Notes: generated by a model not told the origin, from the sequence alone. Positions 1-41,369 are shown, counted from the stretch's first letter. The stretch is DNA of 41,369 nucleotides from Psammoneis japonica (GCA_008632985.1 QPGO01000165.1:124001-165369), one strand, 5' to 3'. Made by a program: numbers and translations.

Positions 1-553
1 TCTTGCCACTGCGTGGAATCACACTGCAAGTGGAGCTCACATCCTTGACTGGCAGATGTGTTTAGACCAATGGGCTTGACAAACTGAGAACAAAGTCAAG
101 AAATGCTCAAAGGACTGTTGCTGATTGGCTGATGAAGAAGCTGACATGCTGGATGCCACACACAACCCTCACATCATTTTCTCATCTGAAAACCCGTGTG
201 CACAAAGCCTCTTGTGCCAGCAAAGAAACACATGAGGATGCCCTTGCGGCTTGTGCACAACTTGAGGACACCTGGGAATGGAGACAAAAGGATTTTCTTG
301 TGGTGGATGGATGCAGTTGAGCAAAAACAATTGGGGCCCTGGCAAGTGCAAAGATGACTCAAACAGAAGGTTTTCATGTGTGCTGGCAAATGTGTGGGAT
401 GACAAACAAAACAGCACCAATTGGTGAGAGCAACAATGTCTGGCATGCATGTGAAGACAGACAACTCAAAGTTTGCTGTTTGTTTGAAACAAAGCCAAAG
501 CAATGGTTTCACCCTCCTGGAACAAACCAATCATGTTGCTTTCTTTCTCTTCC
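1..553 (+). repeat. 3' part of a dispersed ~1.7-2 kb decayed gene-like repeat (copy A, cut by the window start)
   Basis: Aligns by eye with ~13105-13690 and ~20065-20555 (e.g. CCACTGCGTGGAATCACACTGCAA, CCTCTTGTGCCAGCAAAGAAA, GATGCAGTTGAGCAAAAACAA, CCTCCTGGAACAAACCAAT). Similarity stops near 553. Confidence 0.9.
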
Positions 554-797
554 GGCCAAAGAAAAATCCTGCAAAACCTGCAAACTTCAGGACAGGACAT
601 TTTGACAAAAAACGTCAAGGGACACTCAATGACTTTTCTTGCATTTTTGATTCAAATTGACTGGCAAGTTTGGAATCATGTGGAACCCACATGTGAATTT
701 GTGGTGTGTTCAATCCAACTGTGTGCCTCCTGAGCTGAAACCGACTGCATCACAAGATGCGCTAAAAACAACAAACACAAAAAATTAATTGCACACC

Positions 798-2620
798 ATG
801 TCGTCTTCAAGTGATGGCAATGCCAATGGCACCAACCATGTGCCACCAACACAAGACAGTCATGCTGATTGCATGCCTTGTGATGAGGACATGGGGCTTG
901 TGCCAACCCCTCACCTCCTCAATCAAAGGCTGTTCTTGTCCCTCCATGTTTGTGATTGCAAAGAACTGTTGACAGAAGAAAAGCTGCTTGTGGGTGCAAG
1001 CATCATGTCAACGAAGGTGTCCAGCCTCAGAGCTCTTTTCCAAAAGTGCAAGCATGTTTGCAATGACAACCCCACACCCAAAAACCTTTCCACCTCAGGC
1101 AATTCTGGTGACTTGAAGAAACATCTGATGATGTGGTTCTGCGTCTTCCGGCAGGAAGGAGCACGCATTGAAAAGTGCCCCTTCAGCACTTCCAAGAACT
1201 GGAGCCAGACAGAAGATTCACACATTGTTGAGACACTTGGTGACCCTTCCTTCCAAAAACCCCTCCAGCACCTTCACCAAAAGGCTCCACATGTTGTGCT
1301 GGAGGAGGGCAACCCACCCCTTGTGGCTGTGTGCCAACAGTTCACAGTGGTTCTGTGCAACAATTTTGACAAGTGCAAACCAACATGCAGGTTTCAAGAT
1401 GACCCACTGCTGAAGGTGTTTGATCCCAATGACAAGACAATTGCTTTCCATGCTCCAGATGTCATCAAATTGAGGGTTGGCCAGCTTGGAAGCAGACTGA
1501 CAGTGGTGCACAAGCTTGGCACAAAAAGTGGCTTGGACCCAGAAGGTTTTGAAAATGCACTTGATCTGACAGATCCGCTGGACCAATCAACTCTCTGTTG
1601 GTGGAAGTCAATTGACAGCCATGGTGATTCATCTGTTCTCAACAAGTTTGTGCGCCTTCTTCCAGCTGGGTCAGGTGTGGATGCCTCGGATCCCAGCACC
1701 ATCGAACACAGCCTGAAAGCTGCCAACTCCATCTTGCGCAGCATGTGCAAGGGTGACAGCTCCTCCAGCAAGCCCAAAGTGTGTCTGAAAAAGTCCTCAA
1801 GGTGGTCAATGAGTTGAAAAGTGACATGATGGACAAGGTCAACAAAGAGAACATGTTTTTCTTGCAGCAGAATCAAGACCATGCCCAGGACAAGGTGGAG
1901 TGACTGGGCAACAAGATTCCAGCCATGATGCATGAAAAGGTTGACAACTTCAAAAAGCACAAGAGAAAGATCAAGCAGTGCAAAAAAGCCTGCAGTGAGC
2001 ACAAGGAGCTCAAGAAAGGGGCAGCAAAAGCATGAAAAGTTGAGTTGGACAACATTGACCATGACAATGCTTCTTTTCTTCTGTCTGAGTCATCCAGCAG
2101 TGGCAACAATGAGGTGAGTGCCTTGTGCATTGTCCATTTTACAGTGCCAATGATTTGTGCCAACTCAGTGTTTGTTGTCAACACAAGTGCCATCAATGCC
2201 ATGGAAGGAACAAGTCTGAGAAAGCATCTGCTGGGAACAACTCCAATGGCTGCAGTGGAAGGAATGAGTCTGCAGAGCTGGAGGAAGATGTCCAGTCTGA
2301 CAACAAGAGCAATTCACACAATGAGCCAGTGCACTGTGGCCACACAGAATGCAACAAGCCCAATGAGCTGGTTGGCACCCAAGACAAGGCACAACACCAT
2401 GATTTCAATTTCTTGGATTTGGGTTCTTGGTTGTCAAACATGTGCTGCAACTTTGGCTTTTGTGAGCATTGCTTGCATTGTGTTGGTTGAAAAGCTCACC
2501 TTGACAAAAATGACCCCACTTCCCTGACTTGTGGGTGCGATTGCTGCATTCATGGGGCACAACTTTGTGCACTTGCATTGTGTCCTGATGTGGACAACAC
2601 CGCCACAGACTGTGACATTC
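798..2620 (+). pseudogene. Decayed gene of unknown function with an N-terminal SAP-like motif and a C-terminal Cys/His-rich region
   Basis: 342-aa ORF (789-1817) contains KVSSLRALFQK...LSTSGNSGDLKKHL, resembling the SAP motif LKVxELR...LSTSGxKxDLxxRL. Coding-like sequence continues in shifted frames (Lys-rich, acidic, then CxxC clusters at ~2330-2590). Tyr is absent. End point approximate. Confidence 0.4.
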
Positions 2621-3498
2621 CAGTTGAACATTGTTTAGAGAACAACAGCTTTTTGATGGCACAACTTTTATTTCTGTGGCTCCAGCACATTTGAGTCATC
2701 ATCCAGATGTCCTGTCAACCCCGCAGTTGCATGCCCAAATCCCAGCAGAGCCTTTTGCTCAATCAAGTTGGTGTTGCTTTACAAAAACTTAGAATTGTGG
2801 CACAGTCAATGGCAACTAAATCATCTGCAGAACAAGAGCTTTCCAATGATGCCACTTTTATTTCCACGCCCCCAGAAGATCCAAATTGACATTCAGATGT
2901 CCCACACACCCGCAGCTGCACACCAAAATCTCAGTGCGTTTTGCTCAAGCAGGCGCTGCTTTACAAAAACTTGGAATTACAGCACAATCAATGGCAATGA
3001 CATCATCTGCAGAACGAGAGCTTTCCAATGATGTCACTTTTATTTCCACGCCTGCACTGCACCTGAATCATCATCCAGATGTTCTGCCGACCCCGCAGCT
3101 GTGCACCAAAGTCCCAGTGCGTTTTGCTCAAGCAGGCATCACTCCAGCTAGAGTTGGAATTGTGGGAGAATCAAAGGCAACAACGCTGTCTACAGAATGA
3201 GATCTTTCTGACAATGTGGCTTTCATTTCCATGCCTCTAGCACATCCAAATCACCATCCAGATGTCCCGCTGACCCGCACTTGCATGCCCAAACCCCAAT
3301 GCATTTTGCTCAAGTGGAGGCATTGCTTCACAAGAACTTGGAATTGTGATGCAATCAACAGCAACATCATCATCTATAGAATGATGGCTTTCTAATGACA
3401 TTGCTTTCATTGCCATGCCCCTGATGCATCCAAGTTGGCATTCAGACATCCTGCCAACCCAGCAGTTGCACACCCAAATCCCAGTGCGTTTTGCTTGA

Positions 3499-4093
3499 GG
3501 TGCCATGCACAGACTCAACTTTGCTGCGCAGAGTTCACACAGAGCCACGCAAAACTTACACCAGAGCATGTGCAGAAAAGATGCAAAATCACAGTGCTGA
3601 CCCGCAATCCAAGATTCCATCTCTGACAGTGTGAACCCCACAAAAATTCTGGATCAAACTCCTGCGTGGGACTCAACACAACATGGCTTGACTCAGAGGA
3701 GCTGGGTGACAATGATGTCTCTTTGCAAGACCCAACAAACCACACGTGCATGGAAAGATCATCAAGAGCAGATGTTGGTTGCAACAGTCAAACTGCAGCT
3801 CACACATCCATGTCCAAAGATGCCACAGATTGCAATCTAATGCCTTCTAATTTGTGATTGAGGAAATCCAATGGCATCTTTGGACATGTTGGTGTGAGGT
3901 GCAGTTTGACCCCCCAAACCTTCTTCCCAAATGTGTGCTTGAGACACTTCAACACCTCTTTCTTTGTGACACTTGACATGTTGATAAAATGATTGCCACT
4001 GAAAGTCTTTGCTCCACTCAGCAGACTCATTGCAGCTTTAGCACTGCCATCCATGGCCCACAAGCAACAGCACATGAGACTGTGTCTGATGCC
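3499..4093. mobile_element. 595-bp non-autonomous DNA transposon with GG...CC ends and TTGA (probably ancestral TTAA) target duplication; Kolobok-like
   Basis: Splits one tandem-repeat unit. TTGA occurs at 3495-3498 and 4094-4097. Imperfect TIR: GGTGCCATGCACAGACTCA versus the reverse complement of the right end, GGCATCAGACACAGTCTCA. Uninterrupted units carry TCAA at this site. Superfamily is inferred only from TSD and termini. Confidence 0.8.
3787..3910. repeat. Inverted repeat with 39-bp arms and a ~46-bp spacer
   Basis: GTCAAACTGCAGCTCACACATCCATGTCCAAAGATGCCA (3787-3825) versus the reverse complement of 3872-3910, GTCAAACTGCACCTCACACCAACATGTCCAAAGATGCCA. Confidence 0.9.
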
Positions 4094-4599
4094 TTGAGCA
4101 GGCATTGGTTTACAAAAACTTGGAATTGCAGCACAGTCAATGGCGGTGACATCATCTGCTGAACAAGAGCTTTCTGATGATGTCACTTGTGTTTCCACAC
4201 CTGTGCTGCACATCCGAGTCATCATCCAGACATTCTGCCGACCCCCCGTGTGCACCAAAATCCCACTGCATTTTGCTCAAACAGGCGTTGCTCCAGCTGG
4301 AGCAGAAATTGTGGGACAATCAAAGGCAATGACACCATCTGCAGAATGACAACTTTCCAATGGTGTTGCTTTTGTTCCCATGACAACAGCAGATTGGTTC
4401 TCCAGTTGTGGTTCAATGCCATCAACGACAGTGACGCCACATTTCTGCTGCTGCAAGGTGGGCAAACAATGTCAGCAGTTCTCAATGAATCTGAGATTTG
4501 TCACCAAATTGGACACTGCTCATGACAAACCCTTGGGGGTGGACCTTTCTTTAAGCCAACACTGGACCTGAGGATGCAAGTTGTGGTTGCATCCCATGG

Positions 4600-5700
4600 G
4601 CTTGTCTGCGGAAAGGAATGGCTCACCCTGTTGGTGCTGACCTGGCCCAGTGTTGACTGAAGGAAGATGCAATTCATCATCATCAACTCTGAGGTCTCTC
4701 AAAATGTTGTGCAAGTGAAACATTCATTGAATCACCAAGAAACACCTGCGCAACGGAAAAGGCAAGGGCCACCAAAAAATCCCAAACTTCTGGCAGACAT
4801 TGCCCCACATGCGCTCAATGCAATTGTGGCAGCCTTTGTTCAGATGACAGTTGAATGCATCCTTGCATGGCTCACAATCTGCAAGCATGGTGCCTGTCCA
4901 TGGACCTGCCTGATTTGCGCCACAGCCGCAAGCCTCATCCAAAGAGATGTGGCAGTGCCTCTCTGTGCCACGACACTTGACTTGGATTTCATTCTCCCAT
5001 CTTCTGCCCATGGCGCACAACTCCCAAGCCATCCTGTCATGAGCATTTCCTGTGGCATGGACATCCAAGACTTGGCACTTTGGGTCAGCATCTGCAATTG
5101 CTTGGATGTAAATTGCTGGAAAACCCTTTTGATTGATGCGCAACATTGGGTTCTTGCATTTGTTGCTGCACCGGGCATGCGAATTCTCACAGCATGTCCA
5201 TCCAGTGCTCCCACATGACCCAAGCACAGTTCAGGAAGATTGTTCTTGTTTGTCAAGAATTGATTTTTCCCACATGGTGCCAACATCAGCTGGAACAAAC
5301 ACCTTGAAAAAATCCAACAATGTGTCCTCCACACAAGTGTGACCCACACCAAAAGCAAACACAAGAGCCCCCAATGAACAACCTCCAGCCCCCATGCAAC
5401 TGACTTTTAATTTTTCATTGACCGCAAGTGGCCTCCTGTTGCAATCCTGTCATCCCCCCACCATGTTGGCATCTGACAACCTTGGCTTCAAATGTGGGTG
5501 TGCAATTTGTTTTGGAGACATTCTGTGGTGTGTGGGGGCATTCTGAAAACAGCGACAAATTCTCCTGAGAGCAAGGAGGCACAACATGAATTGAGCAAGT
5601 CCCAAACAATGCATTTTGCATGAGAATGCTCTTGCAATGATTCTCATGCTTCAATGGCATCAGCGTGATGACACAAAATGGCAGTGAGTTCTGCCAACAA
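4600..5700 (-). mobile_element. PIF/Harbinger (DDE_Tnp_4, HARBI1-like) transposase pseudogene
   Basis: Motifs across shifted frames: GHVGALDGHAVRIRMP, NQKGFPAIYIQAIADA, GNAHDRMAW, LDEACG, KDAFNCHL, CIERMWG...KFGIFWWPL. These match the family pattern GAxDG...NRKGF...QA...GSxHD...DxAY...FN...RxxIExxFG...FGIxWRPL. Core is 4724-5240; outer limits approximate; TIRs not found. Confidence 0.88.
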
Positions 5701-6344
5701 AGCCAGCCTCTTTTTTTTTCTTTTTCCTTGGTCTCATTGCCACTGGTGCACTGAGATCTGGTGGAGCTTCATCAAAAGAAGACATGGCAAGTTTGCATGA
5801 GCGTGATTGATTTGCTTTTTCCACCAACATCACTGGTGCTTCAGCGCTGCTCACAAGAAGATGCCTCCAAACACCATGCACTTTGCAGCTCTTGCCCATT
5901 GTGAGTGTGAAATCAGGGGACAGTCTCAGAGACACAAAAATTCAGAAAGCGACATCACATCTGACAATTTTTGAAAATGTCATTGTGCAGACTGTGCAAG
6001 GGTTTGCAAGGGCAATGGAACAGGTCAGCACCATTGTTCAGTTCCCACGCGCTGCATTGTTTTTAGCCAATCAAATTGTTTTTCAACTCCATCATGAGTC
6101 AGCAAAAGCCAAATGTGACGCATCATCACTTGACAACATCAACATCCTTTTTGGCATTTATGACATCATCACTCAAGAGATGACAAAATGGAAATGGAAA
6201 ATGGACAGATGCAGTGGTGGGAAAACTGCACATTCAGAACACACATCAACAACCACAGTCGCTGCGGCATCACCATGGCCACTCCGCTCCATTTGTGCCA
6301 TCACACTGGGACAACAAGACAGGCAAGAGCATTCATCTAAGGAA

Positions 6345-6657
6345 GTGCAAATGCCTTGAGTTTTGTGGTGGCATTTGTTGTTTGATGACTCCTCAAAGTT
6401 GTTGCATTCTTTTCCATTTTCTGCCAGTGCTGATGGTGGGTGTTTTTTCTCTTCTGCCAACAAGATCATTCATGAGTCAACTGGCACTGGCGTGATGCAA
6501 TGGGTGAGAGAACCACAAAGGCTGTGCAAACGTCTCGAGTTTGAGGGGGGCATTTGTCATTTGACAACTCCCAAAATTTGTTGTGTTCTTTTCTGTTTTC
6601 TGCTGGTGCAGATGGTTGGTGTTCTTTGTTTTGTTCACTGCCAACAACAAGATCATG
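6345..6657. repeat. Degenerate tandem duplication (~180-bp period)
   Basis: GTGCAAATGCCTTGAGTTTTG...GATGGTGGGTGTT...AACAAGATCAT (6345-6470) is repeated at ~6525-6657. Confidence 0.8.
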
Positions 6658-7067
6658 GCAAACAATCAGCCATGGAAAGACACACATTGGTGGTTGGTTG
6701 GCACCAGCAGGACTTTGCTCCTCTTTCAACACATTGAACATTGGTTGACTGCAGCATGTGTGCCGTTGCACACATGATGCTTCAGGCACTTGCACCAAAA
6801 TCATTCTCTGCTTTGACACAGATGCTTCTGGCAGATGATGCTGGCTGTGGACACATTGAATGTTGGTTGACTGCAATTCATTGGCTCTAGAAGGAACCCT
6901 CAGGTGTGAGCATGCATGACGCAACCATGTGTGCCATTTTGGACATGATGCTTCCGGCCCTTGCACCAAAATTATTCTTTTCTTTGGTGCAGACACTGCT
7001 GGCTGTAGAGTGGGGATTGCTGCCAAAATCTCACCAACAAACATTGACCACAATGCATGCACTCTCT

Positions 7068-9850
7068 CTAAAAGAATCCCGCAGTGGTTTTTGTGCATGG
7101 GAGTGCATGCACAACGTGACCACGGAGGCCGTTTTGCACACGTCTCTTCTGGCCCTCACAGCAAAATTCTTCTTCAGTTCTTCTTCTCTTCTTTGACATG
7201 GATGCTGCTGGCTCTGGAGTGGGGGTTGCCACTGCCAGATGTGCCACTTGGAGGTTGGCAGGGAAGCAAAAGGGTGATGGACTGACAAACAAACCAGTGC
7301 TTGGTTGCACCCATGGTGATGGCGGCATCAGAACTGGAAGGACAGGAGGAGGCAGTGGAGGTGCAATTGCATTTGGCTGTTGATGCCATTGGAAGTGATG
7401 GGTGCTGCTGTGTTGTGGCTGTTCTTGACTGGCAGTTTGCTGTGGTGAGTTTTTGGTCTCGATTCCAAACAAAAGGGACTCATCAGAATTGCAGACAATG
7501 ACTCATGCTCGTTGCCATTGCTGCCTTCATCACCAACAGTGCCAGAGTGTTGCTGCATTTGGACATGTGGCAGCAGCTCAGGGTTGGAAGCGCATTTGGG
7601 GCATTGACACTGACTGTTGGTTGGGTGCTTGGGATGCTGAGAGTGCCACTGTCTCTGAGACAACAAGCACTCAGAAAAGAATTCATCCCCATCATCCTCA
7701 GGTCAATCTGGAAGATTTTGGTGCTGCGGGAATTTTGAACCATGCTTTGATGCCCTGCTGTTGATTTTGCAGAGCTTGAGATGGGACAGGAACCTTGGCT
7801 CATTTTGAAAATGGCTTGGTGCTTCCTCGGCTGTCTCTGCTCCAAAAAGTTCAAGCCACAGTTTCAAATTGTGCCTTGCAGTCCCTTGCAGGTTGAGACT
7901 GTCTGCAAGCTCCCATCGCATCCCCATGTTTGCAAAGTGTGCCAGGAGATGGTGACACTTTTCAAGTGAGGACTCTCCTTTTTTGGTGATCCACGGTGAA
8001 AGCTTGTGTTTTGACTTTGCCAATGGCTTGATCTCCTGGCAGCAGTCTCCAACGATCTTGGGTGAGTGCTGGACATTCTCAATCAATGCATCCCCAATGC
8101 TTGTCTTGCCCCTGCCATGAACGGTGTCTTTCCATTGTCCAACTTGCCTTGTCCTGGTGGCTCACCTTTGGTGTTTGCAACCTTGAGCTTGCACCATCAC
8201 TCTCTCAGGTGAATCCAAGACAGCACTGTTGGGACAGAAACTTTGTGCATGAGAGAACCACAATGCTGCATCCACCTCTTGCTTTGTTTCAAATTGGACA
8301 TTTCTTGTGGGTCATGGATCTTTCCATTCACAGTTCCATCTTGTAGCACCATGACAACACCAGACTTGTTCTCTTGATTGAATGCACACAGGCAACTTAA
8401 GAACTGTTGGAGAGCTGAGTTAAAGTCCTTGTGGCTGCGACGCATGAATTTTGTGATGCATTGAATTGCATGGAAAAATCCAAGTCAACCAACAATTGTG
8501 GCACCAAAAATGATTTGGCAGAAAGGGTCAAGCTTCAGTCATGTGTTGGTGTGCACACACTTGGGTGCAAAGTTGTTTTGATGAGCCATCTGCTCAATTG
8601 TGTGGGAACAATCAGACATGGCAGTGGAGTCAACAAGACCCGTAAAGGCTGTAAATCCAGCATCAGTCGACTGCATTGCACGCACATCAGCACCCAACAA
8701 TGATGGACAATTTGCAATGATGGAGTGTGTGTGGTTGACTGTGGTTGAAGTCTTGCATCCATGTGATTGAATCTCTCACTTGTGATGATCATCATCACTC
8801 ACACCACAAGCTGTCAGATCTGACTGGTTGGCTTCAAGAGCCAAGTCAAGCAGCTGAGCACCAGAAGGAGGAAGCTGTCCATGCCATTCTTGCAAAGAAG
8901 GCAAGTCCAGAAATGCTGCATCCTGGTTGGTCTTGTCAGAGCTGCAGTGTGACAGCTTCAGCTCTTCCTGCCGGCAGTTTTGGCTTTTGAAAAGTGACCA
9001 AGAGAACCGTTGTGCACTTGATTCTGTCAATGCAGCCTCTTCCAACCAAGAAGACACCTTGTCGTGGAGCAGGAAGATGCTTGGGGTCCACTGGGAATGT
9101 GGCACAACCACAGTCTGGAAGGGCATTCAGGACATGCCCATCACTTGACCTGAAAAGAGCCTTGCAACAAGAGCACTTTAAGGTTGCGCCATGCTCCCAG
9201 TCAGTGCAGCCAACCACTCTGAACACCTGGGTTGCACTGCTTGCAAACCCTGCACCACCACACTCAACCCTTGCATGTTCAAGAGTCCCAGAGCTGCAGG
9301 CAGTGCACAACAGAGGTGCGTCGGGGAGATTGAGCTCCCACCATGTAAGATGTGTTGCAGTGCCTTGAATGGATTTGCACACAGGATCAGGAGTCACGTG
9401 GAAAGTGGTCTCGGCGCCATTTGACGCATTTGTTGCGGTCACTGCAAAGTCAAGGGCACTGCATGTGAATAAATTCAAGCAATGCCAAAATTGGGAGAGG
9501 CACTTTGACACTTTCATGAGTCAATTGAGCAGTCTCAGATGAACTCCAAGTTGCCATTGCTGCCGGCATTGCTTTCTTCAGGAGGCCAGCAGTCATTTTC
9601 TTGTGTGGAAATGGCTCAACTCCACTCTTTGGCACCTTGCTGCTTGACACATTGTGCACAATGGCTGCATTCTCTGGAGGTGTGTCCCAGAAGTCTTCTT
9701 CAACCTCCTCTTCACCATTGTCTTCAGGGGGGAACAGGCAGTCACGCGACAAAATCCTTCTTTGCATCAGATTGTTTTTGCACTCATGGGGCATTGACAA
9801 CAGAAACTTGAGCACTTTTTTCTTTAATGCTGAAATCAGCATGCTGTCTG
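7068..9850 (-). mobile_element. Decayed large DNA-transposase-like ORF (RGxSxLExxH class, DUF6729-like, possibly Mutator-related)
   Basis: Consecutive minus-strand fragments: LCTAC...LKCSCCKALFRSSDGHVLNALPD...FPVDPKH; LGFFHAIQCITKFMRRSHKDF; KGESSLEKCHHLLAHFANMGMRWELADSLNLQGTARHNLK; then a Pro-rich tail ending in KKRRR...FCC...H...C. Many frameshifts and TGA stops. Family assignment is from motif recall, not a search. Confidence 0.55.
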
Positions 9851-10239
9851 GACAAACACAGCTGTCTGTGTTGGGGTTCTTGTGACATGTCTTGTCATGG
9901 CCAAGCTTGCATGACTTGCCTTTGACACATCATTTGCACACCTTGGTGCTGAAGTCCACATGACTGGTGATTTTTTTGTGAAACTTGTTGTTGCTCCCAA
10001 GCAAGTTGCAGTTGTGATTGAATTTGTGCTCCTTCCTTTGTGCTTCCTCTTTTGCTTTTCACTTGGCTCTTGCTTCTTCTCAACCTTCTTCTGCTGGGAA
10101 GGGTTTGATTGGCTTTTGGGCCTCATTTCTTTGCAAATGAAACTGGGCATGATGACAGGAGAAAAGGCACACCAAAAGGCATTCCTTCCATGCTGAAAGG
10201 CAGTGCAAAGGGAGAGGCTTCATTTGGCTGAAGTGCGCA

Positions 10240-11760: not shown

Positions 11761-12029
11761 TCCTCCTCACTCAAGGCCACTGCAGCTGGCAAAGAGATTG
11801 CATGTTGTGATGCAAGTTCAGCTGATCCTTTTTGTGTTGTGTCAACAATTGCTTCACTCATTTTGAAATGTCTGTGCCAAAACAGGAATTTTGACAAGTT
11901 TCGATGTTTTTGAGATCTTTTTGAAAGATTGCCACTTTGTCACAGACAGTTGGGGGGATCAAGTCATGCCTTGAGTCCCACCACTTCTTTTCACTTCATT
12001 GTCACACAACACATCAGCCCTGAAAAGGC

Positions 12030-13730: not shown

Positions 13731-13829
13731 TTTCACAAAGCAAGGAGCAAACAATCCCCACCCTGGACATGTCTGCTCTCCTGTTCCCCACTTTGGCCAA
13801 GACATGGGCCCAGAACACTGGATGACTGT

Positions 13830-14340: not shown

Positions 14341-14399
14341 CATGAAAAAGGATGGGGGATGGAGCGCCATCACCCATTTGGTTCACAAGCATGTTTGGA

Positions 14400-30639: not shown

Positions 30640-31175
30640 CATGTTGCGATCCATGGGAGGTCTTCTCTTTCCCTCTTCCACACCACTCAAAGACCTCCCA
30701 GTTGGGAGTGCTTGCTCACTCCTGGATGGCCATCCCACATTTCCCGCTGATGCATGCACTGCATGCATTGAGACGATGGCGGGTGCTCGCTCATTTGCGC
30801 CATGCATTGCCAGGGCATTGTTTGAGCCGGATTTTGTCAACTTTCACACAATGCAATGCGATCACCTGTGTCATGTGAGAATCGGATCTCAAAGATCCAA
30901 AAGACATCTTGGAAGCCTGACTCAGAATTGTTTGTCTCAGCTGACTCAGGCAGACTTCGAGTGCAGGCACCGGCAGCGAACGAGTGCACGACAACACTCT
31001 TTGCAATTTTGCCTCAAGCACAGCACATCCACCTTTAGAATCACATGCACTGCAGTGCTGGCATGGTGCACTAACATGGGTTCATCTCTTTCACGAGGAA
31101 AGTTAATTGACAGGCGTGATGAAGAAGGACACTTCCATTCTTTCTATTGTCTCCAGACAACGGTCGAGTGCACCG
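30640..31175 (+). pseudogene. Decayed coding relic of an unknown multicopy family, homologous to ~26700-26835
   Basis: MGSSLSRGKLIDRRDEEGHFHSFYCL (~31075-31155) versus MGPSLSSGKLIDRRDKKGLFHGFCSL (~26730-26810) and a frameshifted copy at ~26320-26400. Confidence 0.55.
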
Positions 31176-31180
31176 ACAGC

Positions 31181-32085
31181 ATGGGAAAAACGGCGCATGT
31201 AGATACGAAATCTTTGACCGCCAGTGTACGCCGCCGAGTGAAGCGAAGCACAACAGCCTATTCCAACAGTTCAGCCGCCCACCATTCAACAACCTCAGCA
31301 GCAACCCATTCTCATTCAACAACCTCAGCCTCTATTCTTGCTGTTCAAGACCGCCCACTCGTTCCTCCTATATACAATGGCGTCAATCCCAACTATCCCG
31401 GCGTCACCATGGTGCACGGATCGCCTCCCATTTTTTCGGTCGAGAATTTTTTGACACCGCACGAGTGTGATTTTTGGTCGAGAATTTTTTGACACCGCAC
31501 GAGTGTGATTTTCTCATTGCGGCCGCATCCGATTCCTTTACCCCCGCACCCGTGGTGGGCAAGGGCAGTGGCGAAATCTCGCCGTCGCGAACCTCCTCGA
31601 CTTGTTATTTAGCACGCGAGGATGTTCCAGACTTGATGCGCAAAGTGACAGTGCTCACGGGCAAACCCGTGCACACGTGCGAATTGCCCCAAGTGGGACG
31701 GTACGAACCGACGCAACAATATTTACAACACTTTGACGCGTTTGATGTTTCCACGGAAGATGGATTGCGGTTTGCCACCAATAGTGGACAACGGACCGTG
31801 ACCGTGACCGTGCTGATTTATCTCAATGATGTTGCCAACGGAGGTGATGCACGATTTCCCTTGTTGGATCTCAATGTACAGCCTCGCAAGTGCATGGCTC
31901 TTGTCTTTTTCCCAGCCACCATTAATGGGCTCTTGGAAAAAATGGCCTTGCATGCGGCACTACCGGCGGTCGATACCAAGTTTGTTAGTCAAATGTGGAT
32001 TCGACAAGCCGAATACAAGGGACAACCCTCCAAGCGACTGGACACCATAATGGGGGTGTTGTTTGGACAAGAGGTGATGAATTAG
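31181..32085 (+). pseudogene. Prolyl 4-hydroxylase (2OG-Fe(II) dioxygenase), frameshifted by a 38-bp tandem duplication
   Basis: PPIFSVENFLTPHECDFLI, SRTSST, ELPQVGRY...QYLQHFDAF (HxD), GQRT..VLIYLNDVANGG, ALHAALP and KFVSQMWIRQ. The likely ATG at 31181 is out of frame with the catalytic domain because 31438-31475 is repeated from 31476. There is also an extra ACCGTG repeat at ~31795-31812. Normal dinucleotide composition. Confidence 0.85.
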
Positions 32086-32335
32086 AACGTGAAGAAGAGA
32101 GAAGCCAGTGTCATGTGGTTTTGGTGTTTAGAAAATGCTCCGTCGGCTACAGTTTTGGAGCTCTCGTTCATTCTGGACGAGATTAGTGTATAGTTTTTAG
32201 AGCTTTCGATCGCGGTTTCAACAGACTTTCAAGTGCTGAATTTCTGGAGAAAGACGCAACTTCGAGCAAGTAGCAAAATATCTCATAACTGTAACAACAA
32301 GCTTGATTAGTAAAGTTCGCATGCATTATCTTCCA

Positions 32336-35300
32336 TCACATGTCCATCCACGCTTGCGGAAACAAATGGTCTGGTATGCCAATTTCGTGTCGAAACGCGG
32401 ATTGTACAAACATATCGGACGTGTATTCGTCATCCACAAACTCAATGGTTCGCCGCGGAACGTCGTTACGATCCAATCGTCATTAGGGGTGCGATGCACA
32501 CGAACCACGTACACATCTTGCGGTGGAACAGTGGTGTCCGCTAGATACGGATCGCCCTCATGACGATGCAGCACTTGACAACGGTAGGCATCTTGCGTTC
32601 CAGTGCTGTACAAATGCGGAGAGTATTCCCACTTGCACTCATTGTCGTGTTTGCCCGTCCGAGTTTGCTTTTCGTCCAAATTGCCCACATAACAAATGGT
32701 TTGAAAGTTTTCGGGATATGGATCCGCTTCTTGTTCCTCGAGTGTCTTGACTGGAACGTAAAAGTCATTGTGCTCGGCCGCCGAAACGTACTCATCATCA
32801 TCATTGGGTCGCCAGTTTTGCAAATGCGTATTCCACGCATCCTCCGATTGCTGGCCATAATCCAAAAACACTTCTTCACCCTCTTGAATGTCACGGGTGG
32901 CAACCACTTCCATAATGACACCCGCGCGGTTTTCGCTCATTAGCTCCTCTACCGGTCGATCCAGCCAATCGGCCTGATTGGGCAGCTTGGATTACCGGCG
33001 TAATTCGGCATTGAATTCCGGGTGATGATGATTCAAGTAATTTGTCACGGGCGTGTATGGAAAGAGCAACAAGTTTGACTTGGGGTGGCCATAACAATAA
33101 TTGAGCAAGAGCTGTTGGCCTATCGTACACTTGCATGTGTCGACGATGCAATTGAACAAAGGGCAACGGAGCAATGATGCTGCCCTGTGCAAACGAGTCG
33201 CAAAGGCTCCCTTTCCAGCCTGTGGGAGCGTGGACGTGTCGGGGCGGATATTGTCAAGACAGACACCATTCTCCTCGAGCCATTCGGGTGAAGGCACCGC
33301 GTTTGGTACCGAGTGGAGGGCCGTGCCCTTCTTTACCACCTCTTGTACGTGAGACAACTCCCTGGGCAACGCCAAGCGGACGCGATTGCCATCATTCTTC
33401 GAATCCGTCTCATTGTACCAGAGCAATGACCACAAGTCATTGGCAAATTCCGTGTTGGGATTGTGATCAATGAGATCCCAAAATTTACGCAAATCCTTGT
33501 CGGCGTTTCTGAAATCATAACTCAAGGGAATCACACCCAACTTTTCGGCTCGGTCCTTAAACCACGTGTCTCCGTATTGCACAAAGAGTTCCATTCCAGC
33601 CTGAATGTGATTCTCCGCCGTGTACCTTACTCCATGATAGGTTGTGGAAGCACCCGTTCCAGGATCCTTGCTTCGCTCCATACCCATGGTGTCTACATGG
33701 GGTGGACGCATAAAGGCACTGACCAAGCCCGTGTGGCTATTGGCAAGCATGCCCAGGCCCGGCACTATGGATTGTACGTCATCTGCCTCGAATTCTCCAC
33801 CAGTCGTATCGGGATCCCAGTAATAGCTATGCATCAACCAATCGGGTTCCGTGTTTCTACCAATAAACTGTTTTTTGTCTTTCCATCGACGCAATTTTTG
33901 GTTGAGTTCGATATCTTCCACTTGCACCACTACGTCGGAATGGAAAATGTCGCTCTTCTCTGGAATTTCCACAGCCGTGTACATTCCCATGCCTGCGTTG
34001 GGAATGGACGATTCCGCCACATACAATTGACACGACAAAGCTTCTTTTTCTTGTTTGCTTTTTTGTTCCAAATCACGCCACGACGGGGGAATCATGTCAT
34101 TGGGTAATTCCAAGTAATGACGAAAGGCATTTCGTAAATACGAATCATTGGTATAGGGCAAATCGACAATGACAAGTGCCTGACGAGGTATACCATGAAC
34201 GACCTTTTCCGTCCACTCGTCATTGTCTTCCTCTTGCTTGTAACGAATGCGTGATGTATAGGTATTGTGCTTAGCATTGCGTTCCAACACGGTACACTCG
34301 TCCGTTTCATCCGTGTGACGATAATAGACCATGTCGGATTCTAAATCGTCCGATATGACCCAAGTGTATTCTCCATTGGTGTCGTCTGTTGAATCCTCCA
34401 ATTCATCAAACCAACAACGTGTTTCGACATTTGCGGGATATGCCGGCTGCTCGTCTTGAATGGTTCGAATGTGACGTTCCTGGTTAAAGACAGCTGCCGG
34501 TATGTAGTCTTGCGGTGATGAGCGTGGTGCCTTGCCGTAGTCCTGGACATGCTTGTCCCAAGATTCTTGCCAATCGTTACCATAATCCACCAGAATCTCG
34601 TCTCCCTTGGAAATATCGCTCGTGGCGACAAGTTCCATCATGAGTCCTGTTTTCTTGTTGTTTTCTAAAACTTGTGTGCTGGTCCAATTCAACCATTCCG
34701 GATGAGATTGACGAGAGGACCAACGAAGTTTGACATTGGCCGTCTTGTTGTCGCTACTTCCGTGATTGATTGTGTTTGTGGCGGATGCATAGGGATAAAA
34801 CACCAACGATGTAGACGGATGGCCATAGACATAATTGTACAAGAGTTGATGACCACGGTGATAAACCTTTTCTTCATCATGTTCATCAACGACCCACAAA
34901 TCCAAATGACTACGATGCAAATGAATCAAGGGTGCTGGCGTCACGACGGTGCCCTTCTGTAAATCACGAGACGCAAAGGCACCCTTGCCGGCACCGTCAA
35001 TGGTAGATTCCTTGACAGTCATGTGATCCAGACACAATCCATTTTCTTGCAACCACGCTTGGGATCGAATGACATTGGGTACCGTAAGCATGGCGGTACT
35101 ACCCTTGAGGTGAAACCAAACATGATGTGCGTCTTGATAGGTTTTGGGCAATGCCCGTTTGATGCGTGGACTGACATCGTCCCGCTCCTCAATCTCCTCA
35201 CGCCATGCATCCCAATGTCCTTGTCGTGATCCACCCACAAAATAATCACGCAACCACTTGTCGGCAATTTCAAAGTCACCACTGAGTGGCAAATCGTTTC

Positions 35301-35412
35301 CAAAAATTTCATTTCGTTCTTAAAACCATCCATCACCGTACATGGCAAAGAGTTCCATACCCGCCGGTATATTTTGATTGGCTTGAAAGGTCAATTCCGT
35401 ATTGTACGTAAA
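32336..35412 (-). pseudogene. 5'-truncated multi-SET-like-domain protein gene with stops and frameshifts
   Basis: Repeated SET-like signatures: STIDGAGKGAFASRDL...INH...ATSDISKGDEILVDYG; SSIPNAGMGMYT...LANSH...IQAGMELFVQYG; STLPQAGKGAFATR...LNH...ATRDIQEGEEVFLDYG. In-frame TAA at 35320-35322 and 32992-32994. Paired frameshifts at ~33120-33195. A frameshift at ~32463 hides the true C-terminus VPRRTIEFVDDEYTSD...AFRHEIGIPDHLFPQAWMDM* (stop 32336-32338), which mirrors the internal repeat end. Confidence 0.85.
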
Positions 35413-35759
35413 TGCTCCCGCTTGTGGAGTTGTTCTGCTGTGCCAACAAATGACAAACACGAGCTTGAGGAGGCTTGTGTGCAATTTTGCAGCTGTGGCA
35501 TTGGGGGTGCCAATGACATGAGCTCCTGCCAGCTCCAACCTTGGCCCATGGTTTTTGAAACACTGGTGTCTCTTGCTCAGCTGTGAAAAGCTGTGGCATG
35601 TGGGGTCATGCAGCCCAGGAGCCAGGCTGCCTGCACTCCTTTTTGCAGATGGTGCAAAGCGCTGTTGTGACTGCACAAGGAGGGCAATTCTTGTGGTTGT
35701 GCCAGTGTTCTGAAGGTCTGGGTGTGCCCCTGGGAAGCTGCACATGAAGAGCTCAGCAT

Positions 35760-36565
35760 TGCCACCAGCGCCAGACGTGCATTGCTGCCCTCTGTGTGTC
35801 TTGTGGTTCTGGGAGCCTGCAAACTCAAGTTGGGCATCTCAGCTGGTGCAGCTTGGCAAACCATCTTGATTGGAGCCTGGCATGCAGACAACACTGTTGC
35901 CAAGAGCAGCTCTGCAGGGGAGGAGGGAAACATGCAGAAATGTTTTGCAGGAGCCATTCTGTCAATGGTGGCTGGGGCAGCCTGGGTTGTGGGAACTTTC
36001 TTTTGATGGGAGCCATGCAGCCACAGCAAGAGAAGATGTTTTTGTGATTGAGCATCTGACAGACATGGTTTGGACACAGAGAGCTGTCCTCTGCTCAAGC
36101 TCCAGTGAGCAGCATGCTCCAAAGGTGACATTGCACACATGCTTGTGCATCAAAACATGCGCCTCTTGCTTCAGACCCCATGTGCAGCACGGCTGTGTGG
36201 AAAGGCGCTTGTTGCAGGCACATCTCACAGGAGGTTTCATGCTTGGCTCTCAACCTTGGTTTTAATTTCTCAGCTGGCAGCTCAGCAAACAGTCTCAACT
36301 GCAGCTTGGTTTGTGGGTGGCGCTGTTGCCAAGAACCACTCTGGGGGGGACAAGCAGAAGGGTTTTGCAGGAGAGCTGTTTTGTCACGAGTGCTCAGGAT
36401 GGCCTGGGCTGCCGCAGATTTTGTTGATGAAAGCCAAGCAGCCACAGTGCAAGAGAAGATGATTTTGTGATTGAGCATCTGAATGACAAAGCCCAGGCAT
36501 GTGGAGAGTTGTCCACATGATCTCAGCTCCAGCAAGCAGCAGGTTCCAAAGGCGACATTGCACGG
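35760..36565. repeat. Degenerate tandem duplication (~425-bp period)
   Basis: TCTCAGCTGG...CTGTTGCCAAGA...TTTTGCAGGAG...CAAGAGAAGATG.TTTTGTGATTGAGCATCTGA...CCAAAGG.GACATTGCAC occurs at ~35835-36138 and ~36268-36563. Confidence 0.85.
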
Positions 36566-37047
36566 GCAAGTTCGTGTGCCAACAATGAGAAGCCTCAAGC
36601 TGTGAGAGTCATGAAAAAGCCATCAACCTCCCAACCAGCTGCGAGCCAGCCAAACCATGTGCCACTTGAGGGCCCAAGGCTCAAAACAAGAGGGGTGCAT
36701 CAACTCTCTTCTTGTTTTGTGTGCTCAAGAGCCTTTTGTTCTCTCTGCAAGTCTTTGGCATGTGCTCGCCTCTGTTGAGTAGAGTGTGGATTGAAAGGAT
36801 GCTGCAATGCCAGATGGGTTGATTTGTCTTTGCTGCAAAAGGTGTGCATTGTCCATTTTGATTGGATGCCCATGCAGAGAACTGAAAACCAGCATTGTTG
36901 CGAGCATTGAATGTAGAGAGAGAAAACCAATTGACATTTCCCAATGAACATGTAAATGCTGCAGTTAACTGGTCCAGAAAACACATGATGATTTCGCATT
37001 TGACATCCTGTTTTATCCACTCGATTTGCTTGTGCCTGCAACTCTAC

Positions 37048-37195
37048 ATTGTCAACCATTTGGCTGTCTTTGTGCCGAAGTAGAAATTTTAATTAGGGGA
37101 TTTTGTCAACCATTTGGCTGTCTTTGAGCCGAAGTAGAATTTTCAATTGTGGGATGTCGTTGACCATTTAGCTTGCTTTGGCTCAAAGCAATTTG
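37048..37195. repeat. 54-bp tandem repeat, about 3 copies
   Basis: GT(CA/TG)ACCATTT anchors at 37051, 37105 and 37159. Confidence 0.85.
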
Positions 37196-37616
37196 TTGAT
37201 GTGGGTCATGGGCTTGTCGTCAACCAGCCACGATCATGAAATCTTTGCCGAAAATCCGCGATGCCCAAAAGAACGTTGAGTGGATTCAAATGCCTCAGTT
37301 TTGAATGCTTGTTTCCATTGAAAACACAACCCAGATTGCTGCACATCTGCACATGCTTGTCTTTCTCTTTACGTCGCTCACTTTGTGTTGGCACCGCGTT
37401 GCCGCGTCAGAGCGTGTTGTTTGATTTTTTGTTTTCTTTCCCTCACTTTTGGCCTGTCAAAGGGATTGCCCTTGTTAAAATTGACCATTGTGCATTTGTC
37501 AGTCTACGAACATGTGGACAAACCTTAAAATCAACGCGAAGGGCCCATTTTTTTTTTGCACTGCGTGTCACATCCCATCTGACTGGACATTTGTGTCCCT
37601 GCCCAACCCGCGCTAC

Positions 37617-37710
37617 AGGAAGGGGTCATAAAATGTCCCCGAAGGCATTTTTGTCAAAATTCCAGAATCCGGATTCTGCCGCCTTCGGGACATAAAATGC
37701 ACCCTGCCCT
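37617..37710. repeat. ~94-bp hairpin (30-bp imperfect arms) with an internal perfect 16-bp palindrome; possible mini-MITE
   Basis: AGGAAGGGGTCATAAAATGTCCCCGAAGGC versus the reverse complement of 37681-37710, AGGGCAGGGTGCATTTTATGTCCCGAAGGC. CAGAATCCGGATTCTG at 37663-37678. Confidence 0.7.
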
Positions 37711-40700
37711 CAGCCCTCAGAGGGTGAGCGCTGAAACAATCGGTGGCACGCAAACAAGGACCTCCATTGACCTTGTGATGACTTCACAACATGTTGCAGC
37801 CTTGCCACTGTGCTGAATCACAACATGGCTGATTTCATTGATCCAGAAGCAGTTGAGTTCTCAGCACCAGACAGCGAGCATTGCTGACAAGACGATGCGA
37901 AACTGACAACTGCAATGGCTGGCAAGTCACTTGGCATGAGCACTGTGTTACAAAAAGCATGTTGTTGGCAAAGTTCTCAATGGTCACACACAAAACTGTG
38001 CATGCTTTGCAGCAATGCACTGCACTGTGCAGCAAGCGCTGCAAAGTGCAAGTGACAGCACACGTTGCATTTTTGCCAAGTGGTGTTTTGTCAAATGGCA
38101 GAAGCAGCTGTGTGTTTGCTGTGCATTGTGTTTCAAACTCTGTTGTGACATCCACTTTCAGCATCAACAAGAGTGACCACAACAGAGAACAAAATTTGCA
38201 CACTCCCTTTGCTGCAAAACCAACTCCATCATCTTGCTTGTGTCGAAAACTCTTCCGATTCTTGAATGAACAGTTCCGTCCATTGTGACCGCTGTCGCTG
38301 CCACTCCTGCCACTTGTCACACAGCCACAGCAGTTGGGCCTGCCACCACTGTGACGGCTGTCACTCAATGCCATTTGCCGTTCCAGGGATTTGGGCTGCT
38401 GCTCCTGCCAAGTTGGGTGGATTGTTGATTCCATCGGCAACGCGACAGTCAAGCCCGGTGGCCCAAGCCCAGCACTCACTTCACATGCTTGATGACAAGA
38501 ACAACCTGGCAGTCTTGAGCACCTTGAGACTTTCTGGAAACAGTTGGCTGAGTGCTTGTCAATCTGTTGAGAACAAACCGAAAATGCAGCGCAAGCGTGA
38601 GAAGCATTGGTCTGTCGGTTGGCAAGTTGAGTCTCATTGTTGGCATGTGGGTGTGTGGTTGGCAAGCATCGAAACCAAAAAGCAGTTCATGTCATTGACA
38701 ATCATGGTCACGAGCAAGCAATCTTGCCATTTTTGCAAACGTTTTGAGCAACCATTTTTCTTTGTTGCAGCTGTTTGCTCGCAGCGCAGCTTCTTTTTTG
38801 GCTGGCACAGCAGCAAAGCACCTCTCCCCTCTGCCTGCATGCCAGAGAGCCCACCACAATTTGGGAGAGTTTGTCAAGAGAAGAGCTTTTTTCCCATGAA
38901 GTGTTTCCACAGGGGGCGCCACTTTTGGGCTGTTGATTGGCACACATGTCAACTTGATTGAGCACCAAGATTGGTGCCAAGCATGGCACAGCAGCACGCA
39001 ATTCCATCAGCAAAGAACATCAGGCAAAGTCAACAATGCAAGTCCACCCATGTGCTCCTCAGAGAGTGCTTTGTCTCTGCAGGGTGGATGGCTAGTTAGA
39101 TTTGGCAAAGTTGCCTGATTTTGGCAAATTGAGAATCCCCACTTCCGGGTTACTTTGGGCGGCTTGGAACAGCCTGGTTGCTTGATTTTCACACATCATC
39201 ACCACGTGTCGTACGTACGAAGATGCGCGTTTTCACAGTGCATGACATCGCAACTTGAAGTGTGCATCCAATGCAACGCTCAATGAAACAACAAAAAGCC
39301 GCATCTCCCACCATGGGACTCGAATTTTATAAATCGATGGCCGCATCGTCAAGCAAGATGAGAGCACTGTCACAACACAATGAGACAGTGCTTGTTGCGA
39401 TGGTTGTGATGGATTTCTTGGCACTGTTGGCTGTCATGCCACATTTGGACATGCCAAAAACCAGTGTGTTTGCTGATTTCTGCAGGGTTCTCACGACCGC
39501 AGCACAAACATGTCTGCAATCGCTGGGTTCATTTCTGCTGCAGATGTGATCATTGGCATCTAAGGAACACACGCGTGCGAACAGCGTCAGATGCAGAAAA
39601 TGACAATTTGATTTCCAACGTCAACAATGCACCGTGTAGCATGACATGGCAAGGAGCAATGGAGTGTTTTTTTCAAAGAGAGAACAGGAGCTGATTTGTG
39701 CAGCAAACGCAACCATTGGATGCTGCAAACAATTGTTGGCACCTGTGACTCTCCCATTCGGGTCTTGGCAGTTTTGTCAACAGATGGTGTCATGCATCCG
39801 TCTCTTCAACATTTTTTGCTTCCTCATCAAAGCGACAGTTGCAACCACAAAGCCTCGTTCCTTGTCACCCCATGGTGTCAATGCAGCTTGGCTGCGTGAT
39901 GCAGCACGTGATGTGCTTTATCACGGGACAGTGCGTGAAATCCAACAGTGCAATGGACGGGAGCTCCGAACCATCGGCGATCGGATCTGAGATCAGATCA
40001 TCGAGCTCGTTCCAAATCCGTGCTCAAATGGATCGGAGCGGCTGTCCTTCCTTGCGTCTGTACGTCGTACGTACGGAAACTAAATTGGCCATTGATGGAC
40101 ACGCCAACCGGCCAACCACCCTGCAGAAGGGCAGTTTGTCATGTGGCCAGTGGGGCCCACTTGATGGTGCTGAGCAGCACACCACACACACAGAGGCAGG
40201 TCACATGAGAGACACACACACCAGAGCCAAGCGCAAGAAGCCCCACATTCTGCCATGTGGTCATGGTGTGGAAAGAAGAAGAGCAACAAAGGGTGGAAGA
40301 AGAAGAACATGAACAGAAAATGCTTGCGCTGCTGCTCACACGCATGTGTTGCAGCCACTGCTTTGCTTGGCCAGAGGCAGAGTGGCACACTGGGGCAAGT
40401 GGGGTGGGTGGTGGCACAATTGGGGTCCCCCCCCTGCTGGTGGGAGAGTGCGCACTTCGGTGAGCAAGAGTGCTCCAGCACTGACGAGCATTGCCTGTGC
40501 ATCCCAGTGCACAGAGGGCACCCACAAATGTGCGCCATTGTCAGCAACGCTGACTCACAGGGGGCACTGCAGCTGCTTGGCAAGACCATCAGCACAGTTG
40601 CCAAGAGCCCCAAGGCCCTGCAATGTCGTCAAAAAAAAGAAGACCCCATTTTGTTTTGACAACCAATCTTTCCAGGAGGAAAGAGGGGTTAGAGAAAAGG

Positions 40701-41369
40701 TGGAGAGTTTGTGACTGAACTGCTGGATAAGAGAGATTGGAGAGCCAACTGGTGTTGAAGCCTCAGAGGCCATGGAAGAGCCAGCAGGGGTGGCCACATG
40801 AGTTGTTGTGGCCACAGCAATGGAAAGAGCTGTGAACAGAGCAAAAAGAAAAAGAGAAGTCAGCTGCAAGCAAGAACTTGCTTTCCACTCATCAACACGC
40901 AACACAGCATTGATGAAAGAGAAGACTGCAAGCTCAGCTTGCTTCAGCTTGAGCGGTGCTCATGGCCACATGCGCTGCTTCTGTGGCATCGTGCAATGCC
41001 CCCAGAGAAATGCAGTTGTGTGAACCCCCTCCCCCACTGTCTCCTGTTGGTCTCTGATCTGTGCCAAAGTTGTGTGCCCTTGTTGCAAACTGAGTCATCC
41101 CCACTCTCTGCTTGTTGCACCCACAAGATTGTGGCCCCAAACAGGAGGTGGCACTCACACAGTGGAGGCAGGACTTTCAAGCAATTGACACAATCCTCCA
41201 ATGGGGCCAACGCACACTTGCCAGTGCATGTTGGATGCAGAAACTGCTGCAATGTGAGAAAGGTGGACATGTTGTTGCTTGCAAATCCCAGATGCATTGC
41301 AGAGAAAACAAATGATGGGGATGCTCCTCCACTGAATTTGGCCACCAAGACTGCTGCACACATGCACCC

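Follow-up and report, generated by a model that had tools for sequence, protein, structure and literature searches.

In a 41,369-nt stretch of the Psammoneis japonica genome (QPGO01000165.1:124001-165369, assembly GCA_008632985.1; hereafter the window, meaning this entire stretch), nearly every TpA dinucleotide in most of the DNA has been converted to TpG or CpA. The change is a DNA-level, strand-symmetric, domain-limited A:T-to-G:C transition at the A of TpA. The best overall explanation, to which we assign a probability of about 0.75, is a TpA-specific A:T-to-G:C process acting in place on old, probably silent DNA of this diatom. An earlier account of the window, made from the sequence alone (the sequence-only reading), had proposed such hypermutation, and several of its claims are taken up below.

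TpA is erased from most of the window

Base composition predicts 2,817 TpA dinucleotides in the window, and 399 are found, an observed/expected (o/e) ratio of 0.14. CpG is also scarce (n = 879, o/e 0.37), and TpG (n = 4,456) and CpA (n = 4,486) are in excess, with o/e 1.73 for each. When the window is divided into 500-bp bins, TpA o/e falls below 0.1 in 52 of 82, and the longest run without any TA extends over 1,354 bp (786-2140). Hand counts given in the sequence-only reading (0 TA in 1201-1680, 14 TA in 34081-34320) are exact. The layout is as follows.

1-31035: TpA-erased domain (TA o/e 0.04-0.06, TG/CA ~1.8, CpG 0.16-0.59), interrupted by young TA-bearing inserts
31036-35409: compositionally ordinary block of 4.4 kb (TA o/e 0.52, CG 1.05, TG/CA ~1.3)
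35410-41369: second TpA-erased domain (TA o/e 0.05-0.08, CG 0.18-0.40)
36780-37700: partly TA-bearing patch within the second erased domain

Individual segments of the first domain give TA o/e values of 0.06 (1-18500, with CG 0.16 and TG/CA 1.85), 0.05 (22001-28000, with CG 0.32) and 0.04 (29001-31000, with CG 0.59), and TG/CA o/e is ~1.8-1.9 in TpA-depleted DNA. Erasure is confined regionally beside normal DNA, with edges at 31036 and 35409; the latter is abrupt, the first TA beyond it lying at 36263, and the TA islands coincide with single inserted elements. TA-bearing DNA is limited to discrete pieces, namely a copy of a miniature inverted-repeat transposable element (MITE)-like element, 19374-19764, 28065-29033, 2585-3505, the patch at ~37000 and the 4.4-kb block. 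About four fifths of the window (~33 of 41 kb) is old DNA, probably silent, and the erased DNA comprises degenerate DNA transposons, tandem arrays and fragments of dead genes. No tRNA genes or Rfam families were found in the window.

Repeat copies in two states give the direction of change

Certain repeats are present in the window in both a TA-rich and a TA-free state.

21092-21647, + strand: young, unmutated MITE-like element bounded by terminal inverted repeats; 44 TA, all within 21140-21571 (reference state)
25553-26128, + strand: old copy of this MITE-like element, with no TA left
19374-19764, + strand: TA-bearing repeat; its bins far exceed all others in summed word depth (run X1, below)
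29400-30076, + strand: old, TA-erased copy of the 19374-19764 repeat, in two pieces (29400-29559 and 29836-30076)

To polarise the substitutions, we used the TA-rich copies, rather than a family consensus, as stand-ins for the ancestor. In the MITE-like pair, the 44 TA of the young copy appear in the old one as CA (23), TG (15) or another dinucleotide (6), and none is still TA. The 28 CG of the young copy have mostly become CA/TG (18), with 8 retained, and its TG and CA dinucleotides are themselves largely kept (28/36 and 31/39, respectively). Pooling three polarised pairs, 57 of 71 TA have become CA (35) or TG (22) and 2 are still TA; for CG, 33 of 57 have become CA/TG and 18 remain. In the old MITE-like copy, we also noticed that GACGTG (element orientation) reads GACATG in both inverted repeats, such that the ends are still complementary (21092-21100/21639-21647 in the young copy, 25553-25561/26120-26128 in the old). 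This matching CpG change at the two ends may be due to chance or a subfamily difference.

A protein family provides a comparison with sequences from elsewhere.

4724-5230, - strand: decayed Harbinger (DDE_Tnp_4) transposase remnant, with Tyr columns reading Cys, His or Arg

A full HMMER search with this open reading frame (ORF) gave 137 homologues, and DDE_Tnp_4 was assigned to all five of the homologues scanned; the remnant itself matches Pfam DDE_Tnp_4 weakly (E = 0.085). We aligned the remnant with its six closest homologues and considered the columns with Tyr in at least half of them. Tyr is retained at 0 of 6 such columns, five reading TGC, TGT or CAT and one CGC, and Cys makes up 10.7% of the remnant versus 2.7% of the homologues. 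The motifs from which the sequence-only reading had deduced the direction of change were all located, each on the minus strand (DEAC, 4928-4939; FNCHL, 4841-4855; LANC, 27465-27476). No other Tyr-poor, Cys-rich sequence was seen among the 137 homologues, and a metagenome scan with the Harbinger alignment returned three short contigs of ordinary TA o/e (0.51-0.83) and no further erased example. For ORF 4840-5406, which lies in a frame other than that of the remnant, there was no useful match among solved structures. One homologue, P0062 (131 aa), retains Tyr but has His in place of Arg at several positions compared with related sequences, perhaps because it is a copy from some other organism that has undergone CpG decay.

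Taken by themselves, pairwise alignments have no direction, and they would be equally compatible with the opposite polarity: a TA-free ancestor, and TA-rich copies derived from it through CpA-to-TpA mutation like that of repeat-induced point mutation (RIP). We give this idea almost no credence. Conserved transposase Tyr columns are Cys, His or Arg in the window; CG versus CA/TG differences in the same alignments would need A-to-G and T-to-C changes that create CpG; and an ancestral state cannot have a TA o/e of 0.03-0.06 across tens of kb next to genes at 0.52. Asked whether they are derived, the TA-rich copies come out as the older ones. The repeat copies in two states, the protein columns and the argument from plausibility are three independent tests, and they agree on a change from TA to CA/TG.

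A-to-G change is concentrated at TpA

In the polarised pairs, 58 of 142 A residues at TpA (0.41) have changed to G, compared to 22/194 at ApA, 10/125 at CpA and 12/104 at GpA (0.08-0.12). A-to-G rates are hence unequal across NpA contexts (58/142 versus 44/423 for the other contexts pooled; Fisher P = 2e-14), which supports the core inference of the sequence-only reading, that there is a second, TpA-specific A:T-to-G:C process distinct from deamination of 5-methylcytosine (5mC). Transitions at TpA sites outnumber transversions, 58 to 13. C-to-T change is elevated at CpG only (33/113 versus 17/255 in other contexts). Because A-to-G change peaks at TpA and C-to-T change at CpG, two context-specific transition processes supply the TG and CA of the erased DNA. 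Because the recorded events are old, they carry more background noise than those of mutation-accumulation lines.

We then asked which TA dinucleotides survive, by comparing the 135 TA within erased DNA with the 264 TA within ordinary DNA. YTAR (Y, pyrimidine; R, purine) accounts for 75/135 of the survivors versus 48/264 in ordinary DNA (P = 6e-14), and RTAY for 5/135 versus 84/264 (P = 3e-12). The ratio TA/(TG+CA) is 0.039-0.047 for YTAR and 0-0.009 for RTAY, and TAT and TAC drop ~20-25-fold, compared to ~4-fold for TAA and TAG. When the polarised pairs are sorted by 3' base, change is most frequent at TAC (24/40 versus 0.30-0.36 for other TAN). The survivor pattern would fit, perhaps, a preference for A before a pyrimidine (T-A-Y) on either strand.

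The changes arose in place, in DNA and on both strands

Repeats in which both copies are depleted, or which are caught in an intermediate state, bear on where and how the mutations occurred.

6-552, + strand: depleted repeat; partner 13113-13666, 85% identity, 15 CA/TG swaps
12057-12832, + strand: depleted repeat; partner 18591-19373, 77% identity, 28 CA/TG swaps
2585-3505, + strand: tandem array of ~183-bp units in an intermediate state; copies differ by TA/CG/TG/CA at the same columns
4106-4470, + strand: two more units of the 183-bp repeat
28065-29033, + strand: tandem duplicate (28065-28539/28549-29033), intermediate and partly mutated; TA o/e 0.2-0.3, CG ~0.8

Over 1,681 aligned columns with 286 substitutions, three pairs of depleted repeats contain 52 adjacent CA/TG swaps, compared to 14 for every other adjacent double transition combined. 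Among seven copies of the 183-bp repeat, 30 columns vary only among TA, CG, TG and CA, with TA surviving in 7 columns and CG in 11. The sequence-only reading had remarked that sister copies often carry TG and CA at one site, and these counts bear it out. Since neighbouring copies differ by CA versus TG, they must have been mutated independently after duplication, in place. TG and CA are evenly balanced over the 66 erased bins (chi-square P = 0.096), and along the polarised copies there are no strand runs (28 runs versus 27.7 expected, and 21 versus 17.8).

These observations bear on the possibility that repeat transcripts underwent ADAR- or ADAT-like A-to-I editing and that the edited RNAs were reverse-transcribed and inserted back into the genome. 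RNA-editing deaminases typically prefer a 5' U, as discussed in the available text of a preprint on Bigelowiella natans (Mettrop et al., bioRxiv 10.64898/2026.01.13.699255). Yet the targets in the window are a Harbinger DNA transposon, a MITE-like element, tandem arrays and contiguous sequence of unassigned origin over 30 kb; adjacent tandem copies differ by CA versus TG and so were mutated after duplication in place; the strands are hit equally; and no reverse-transcriptase domain was detected among 195 ORFs. With DNA transposons among the targets, an RNA intermediate is therefore unneeded, and we consider an RNA-level origin highly improbable.

CpG loss is distinct from TpA loss and slower

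TpA loss and CpG loss correlate positively across bins (Spearman 0.56), and the two can nevertheless be pulled apart. None of the 11 bins with a TA o/e of at least 0.4 has a CG o/e below 0.5, and 6 of the 52 bins with TA below 0.1 retain a CG o/e of at least 0.5. The clearest case is the following.

27501-28000: stretch with TpA gone and CpG kept (0 TA; 26 CG, o/e 0.80)

In the best polarised pair (21092-21647/25553-26128), the survivors are 0/44 for TA and 8/28 for CG. Because some TA-free bins keep CG, and never the converse, and because 0/44 TA survive versus 8/28 CG, TpA loss must be faster or more widely targeted than CpG loss. Conversion of CpG to TpG/CpA is a second, separate and slower process superimposed on the first. 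By its sequence signature it would match deamination of 5mC, and diatoms methylate transposons at CG, according to the available text of PMC9998398. Decay of methylated CpG yields the same products as the TpA process (33/57 CG to CA/TG in the polarised pairs) and explains the CpG loss (33/113 per C at CpG); however, it cannot remove TpA, and here it is slower and separable.

TpA loss is graded, from untouched through intermediate (o/e 0.2-0.3) to saturated (0-0.06), and these graded states therefore favour accumulation over time over a single burst. The DNA that is still untouched, consisting of two transposon copies and the 4.4-kb block, looks recently arrived.

The correlation of the two losses over bins is what one would expect if TpA loss were a by-product of error-prone repair, with deaminated 5mC recruiting non-canonical mismatch repair and synthesis of the Pol eta type. 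Pol eta favours A-to-G change at WA (W, A or T). Although WA includes AA, the ApA rate is flat (22/194, 0.11, like CpA and GpA) versus 0.41 at TpA. Moreover, TpA is gone where CpG is nearly intact, both in 27501-28000 (TA 0, CG o/e 0.80) and in 6/52 bins, and transitions exceed transversions at TpA (58 versus 13). Since TpA loss outruns CpG loss and ApA is not raised, repair of deaminated 5mC is an unlikely cause; Pol eta, one of the candidates named in the sequence-only reading, fits poorly, and we hold this route to be very improbable.

Short contigs reproduce the TA-free sequence

To evaluate whether the TA-free sequence could be an artefact, we compared the window with contigs of run X1, which derives from one public sample (657,387 short contigs, 140.7 Mb, word depth ~30-50). 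X1 contigs of depth 31-52 differ from erased DNA by 0 in 628 bp (27186-27813), 2 in 411 bp and 6 in 1,203 bp, so the TG and CA bases of TA-free stretches are found in this run as well. Among the differences between X1 and the window, 40 of 482 are listed; these include three TG-to-CA doublets, eight CpG versus TpG/CpA differences and one CA-to-TA change. A long-read basecalling artefact is unlikely.

More generally, modified-base miscalls or errors of assembly or polishing might have written TG/CA over TA, and it is relevant here that the library kind of X1 is not on record and that the run is possibly the assembly's own source. On the other hand, short X1 contigs, at a depth of ~30-50 as from accurate short reads, match erased DNA exactly or nearly; TA-rich and TA-free copies of one element lie 4 kb apart within one assembly; intermediate states are present; and the same signature comes from Illumina data in B. 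natans. An artefactual origin has, in our estimation, only a slight chance of being correct.

Content, apparent age and read depth of erased and spared sequences

We scanned the 195 ORFs of the window (44 + 149 + 2) against Pfam. Significant matches were obtained for ankyrin, Lipase_3, 2OG-FeII_Oxy_3 and SET, and weak ones for glucan synthase, AAR2 and DDE_Tnp_4. No integrase or viral hallmark was seen among these ORFs, nor any reverse transcriptase. A few additional matches (E = 0.004-0.014) were taken for chance.

23474-24094, - strand: Lipase_3 gene fragment in erased DNA; GHSLGG kept; 1 Tyr, 21 His and 10 Cys per 207 positions (206 aa + stop)
13733-14311, - strand: ankyrin-repeat fragment in erased DNA; 0 Tyr, 13 Cys
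27177-27701, - strand: weak glucan-synthase-like fragment with LANC motif; Pfam 28.3 bits, below the gathering score of 37.2
31471-32085, + strand: ORF for a 2OG-Fe(II) oxygenase of prolyl-hydroxylase type (PF13640), within the ordinary block and convergent with the SET gene
35439-32339 (region 32326-35838), - strand: SET-domain gene copy in the ordinary block; two in-frame TAA, at 35320-35322 and 32992-32994

The AAR2-like (weak), ankyrin, Lipase_3 and glucan-synthase-like fragments are nearly free of Tyr, and all lie in erased DNA. The glucan synthase named in the sequence-only reading fares unevenly: its LANC motif could be placed, whereas the family match is below threshold (28.3 versus 37.2 bits). 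That fragment has no useful match among solved structures. No homologues of the Lipase_3 fragment were found in a search that covered longer proteins only, and a homologue search with the 342-aa ORF at 789-1814 was empty.

In the ordinary block, the SET copy is homologous to ~1,200-aa proteins only from their residue ~175-202 onwards, a start that coincides exactly with the composition boundary. Its 775-aa ORF has 59 relatives, the best at 59% identity; the best named relative is from Phaeodactylum tricornutum, at 44% over the whole query. One of the in-frame TAA codons falls at a Lys position that is conserved in the internal repeat of the SET copy. This gene may be a truncated, recent partial duplicate and a pseudogene. 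The neighbouring 2OG-Fe(II) oxygenase ORF is not of TET/JBP type, and no tie to the mutation process is implied.

Summed word depth in X1, which is not copy number, is 13,000-89,000 at 19001-20334 and 21002-21668, the bins of the TA-bearing elements, versus ~75-115 at 22336-25003. The families of these TA-bearing elements may have been amplified recently to very high abundance. Gene fragments at ordinary, apparently low-copy depth are erased, while the elements of highest depth keep TA. This pattern gives no support to a homology trigger or to the repeat-associated, RIP-like character given to the process in the sequence-only reading, with the reservation that depth is not copy number. Read cautiously, it would mean that high copy number alone does not trigger mutation and that age or chromatin state does. 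Targeting would then be by silent chromatin, not by sequence homology. A further run, X2 (same sample, library kind not on record), covers 10 of 30 bins, 7 of the 10 being contiguous over the ordinary block (31007-35675); were X2 an RNA library, the erased DNA would be silent.

Observations that weigh against this interpretation

Several points count against a TpA-specific process of the kind described, or against its proposed T-A-Y preference. The polarisation is drawn from only three copy pairs and a single protein family. Outside TpA, A-to-G change appears raised at AAT (15/64) and GAT (6/28) versus 0.05-0.09 in other non-TpA contexts; possible sources of this excess are a secondary effect at ApT, noise in the alignments and mutations in the reference copies themselves. 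The polarised pairs show the T-A-Y preference only weakly, the predicted strand having been hit at 19 of 28 discordant sites (P = 0.087), and YTAR sites there are mostly mutated as well (8/12). Context-biased regeneration of TA from CA/TG could give the same survivor pattern. Finally, the artefact check compared contigs, not raw reads, from a run that may be the assembly's own source.

Candidate agents

As the agent of the TpA-specific process, our first choice, held at somewhat less than even odds, is an ADAT2/TadA-like polynucleotide adenine deaminase acting on DNA. Such a deaminase would recognise A after a T, perhaps with a preference for a pyrimidine on the 3' side (T-A-Y), and would be guided by silent chromatin and not by sequence homology. 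Deamination at TpA on either strand would lead, via A-to-G change, to TpG or CpA, with 5mC-type CpG decay following more slowly. The A-to-I editing carried out by ADAR and ADAT enzymes is alike in being A-to-G with a 5' U/T requirement. The natural context of ADAT and TadA is U33-A34 of tRNA anticodon loops, and bacterial TadA reads U-A-C-G. Their known editing differs in that it is on RNA, or on DNA only experimentally, whereas here entire domains of genomic DNA are changed in place on both strands.

The sequence data fit another enzyme equally well. T-to-C change at R-T-A is the exact complement of A-to-G change at T-A-Y, and the primary event could be enzymatic modification of the T of TpA to 5-hydroxymethyl- or 5-formyl-uracil by a TET/JBP-type dioxygenase, the modified base pairing with G. 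In dinoflagellates, 5-hydroxymethyluracil replaces T, preferentially at TpA and TpC, and 5-formyluracil favours T-to-C change. Against this, among papers matching 5-hydroxymethyluracil and diatoms, the 10 of 15 listed are all, judged by their titles, on dinoflagellates, and the 2OG-Fe(II) ORF of the window is of prolyl-hydroxylase type (PF13640), not TET/JBP. We regard the thymine route as unlikely, albeit the most plausible of the alternatives to a deaminase.

Comparison with known hypermutation systems

RIP, in ascomycete fungi, converts CpA to TpA and so gains TpA and AT. Like its products, the erased DNA bears a strong footprint of transition hypermutation that is specific for one dinucleotide and destroys transposons and gene duplicates. 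The outcome is the opposite, however, since here TpA becomes CpA/TpG, TpA o/e falls to 0.14 and GC is gained, and a duplication trigger is not supported. Many diatoms have RID-like DNMT4 genes of unknown function, according to the available text of PMC9998398. As homologues of cytosine methyltransferases, these would not explain A-to-G change.

The closest parallel is in the chlorarachniophyte B. natans. The sequence-only reading knew of no description of such a system, a statement now outdated, as a 2026 preprint reports the signature: TpA hypermutation of integrated DNA of nucleocytoplasmic large DNA viruses (NCLDV) and virophages (Mettrop et al., 10.64898/2026.01.13.699255). As given in the accessible portion of that preprint, 231 of 302 nuclear mutations in mutation-accumulation lines lie in integrated giant-virus and virophage regions, and 230 of these 231 are A-to-G or T-to-C, all on TpA. 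Rates are ~1000-fold over background, with events in some lines only. The B. natans genome contains 124 clusters of TpA-poor, CpA+TpG-rich windows, and an ADAT2-like deaminase is proposed; action of ADAT2 on DNA in amphioxus and Trypanosoma is also cited (10.64898/2026.01.13.699255).

The signature in the window is the one measured de novo in B. natans. In both systems, as far as the accessible preprint text describes the latter, change is almost only A-to-G/T-to-C, restricted to TpA and giving TpG or CpA by strand; discrete regions adjoin normal DNA; and long-term TpA depletion is accompanied by CpA+TpG gain. The TpA-poor coding sequences of B. natans are enriched in DDE transposase domains. 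The two systems differ in lineage (a stramenopile diatom versus a rhizarian) and in degree, o/e being 0.03-0.06 over ~33 kb here versus Rho 0.45 in the B. natans NCLDV region, with a genome-wide cut-off of 0.43. They also differ in the targets seen, which here include DNA transposons, tandem arrays and fragments of dead host-type genes, with no viral gene found among the 195 ORFs. CpG decay is superimposed here, and the accessible text of the preprint is silent on CpG; the words CpG, trinucleotide, flanking and diatom do not occur in it (10.64898/2026.01.13.699255). Lastly, our evidence is an old footprint, as opposed to de novo events. In the literature (open-access papers and bioRxiv), we found no report of TpA hypermutation in diatoms.

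Implications

New here are saturation over tens of kb, DNA transposons and pseudogenes as targets, and survivors biased to YTAR. The saturated state shows which TA survive, for which the 231 de novo events in the available B. natans account may be too few. As consequences, Tyr codons turn into Cys/His codons, TAA/TAG stops disappear, as do TATA-like signals, and GC content goes up. Erased DNA is also nearly invisible to homology-based annotation, as illustrated by the Harbinger remnant (E = 0.085), and the load of repeats and pseudogenes in diatoms may be underestimated.

It is conceivable, though we would bet against it for now, that diatoms and chlorarachniophytes, and perhaps all of SAR (stramenopiles, alveolates and rhizarians), share an old, chromatin-directed DNA-editing defence that reads T-A(-Y) on either strand of silent DNA, by means of an adenine deaminase or a thymine-modifying enzyme. 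If so, TpA would be erased faster than methylated CpG, and transposons, viral inserts and dead duplicates would lose Tyr codons, TAA/TAG stops and TA target sites. Such a defence would amount to a natural DNA adenine base editor, the mirror image of fungal RIP, and an enzyme that edits adenine (or modifies thymine) in a defined context would be relevant to base editing and to mutation-rate heterogeneity. If confirmed genome-wide, P. japonica would represent a second lineage, from a different major branch of SAR, and TpA hypermutation would move from a single-species curiosity to a probable class of eukaryotic genome defence.

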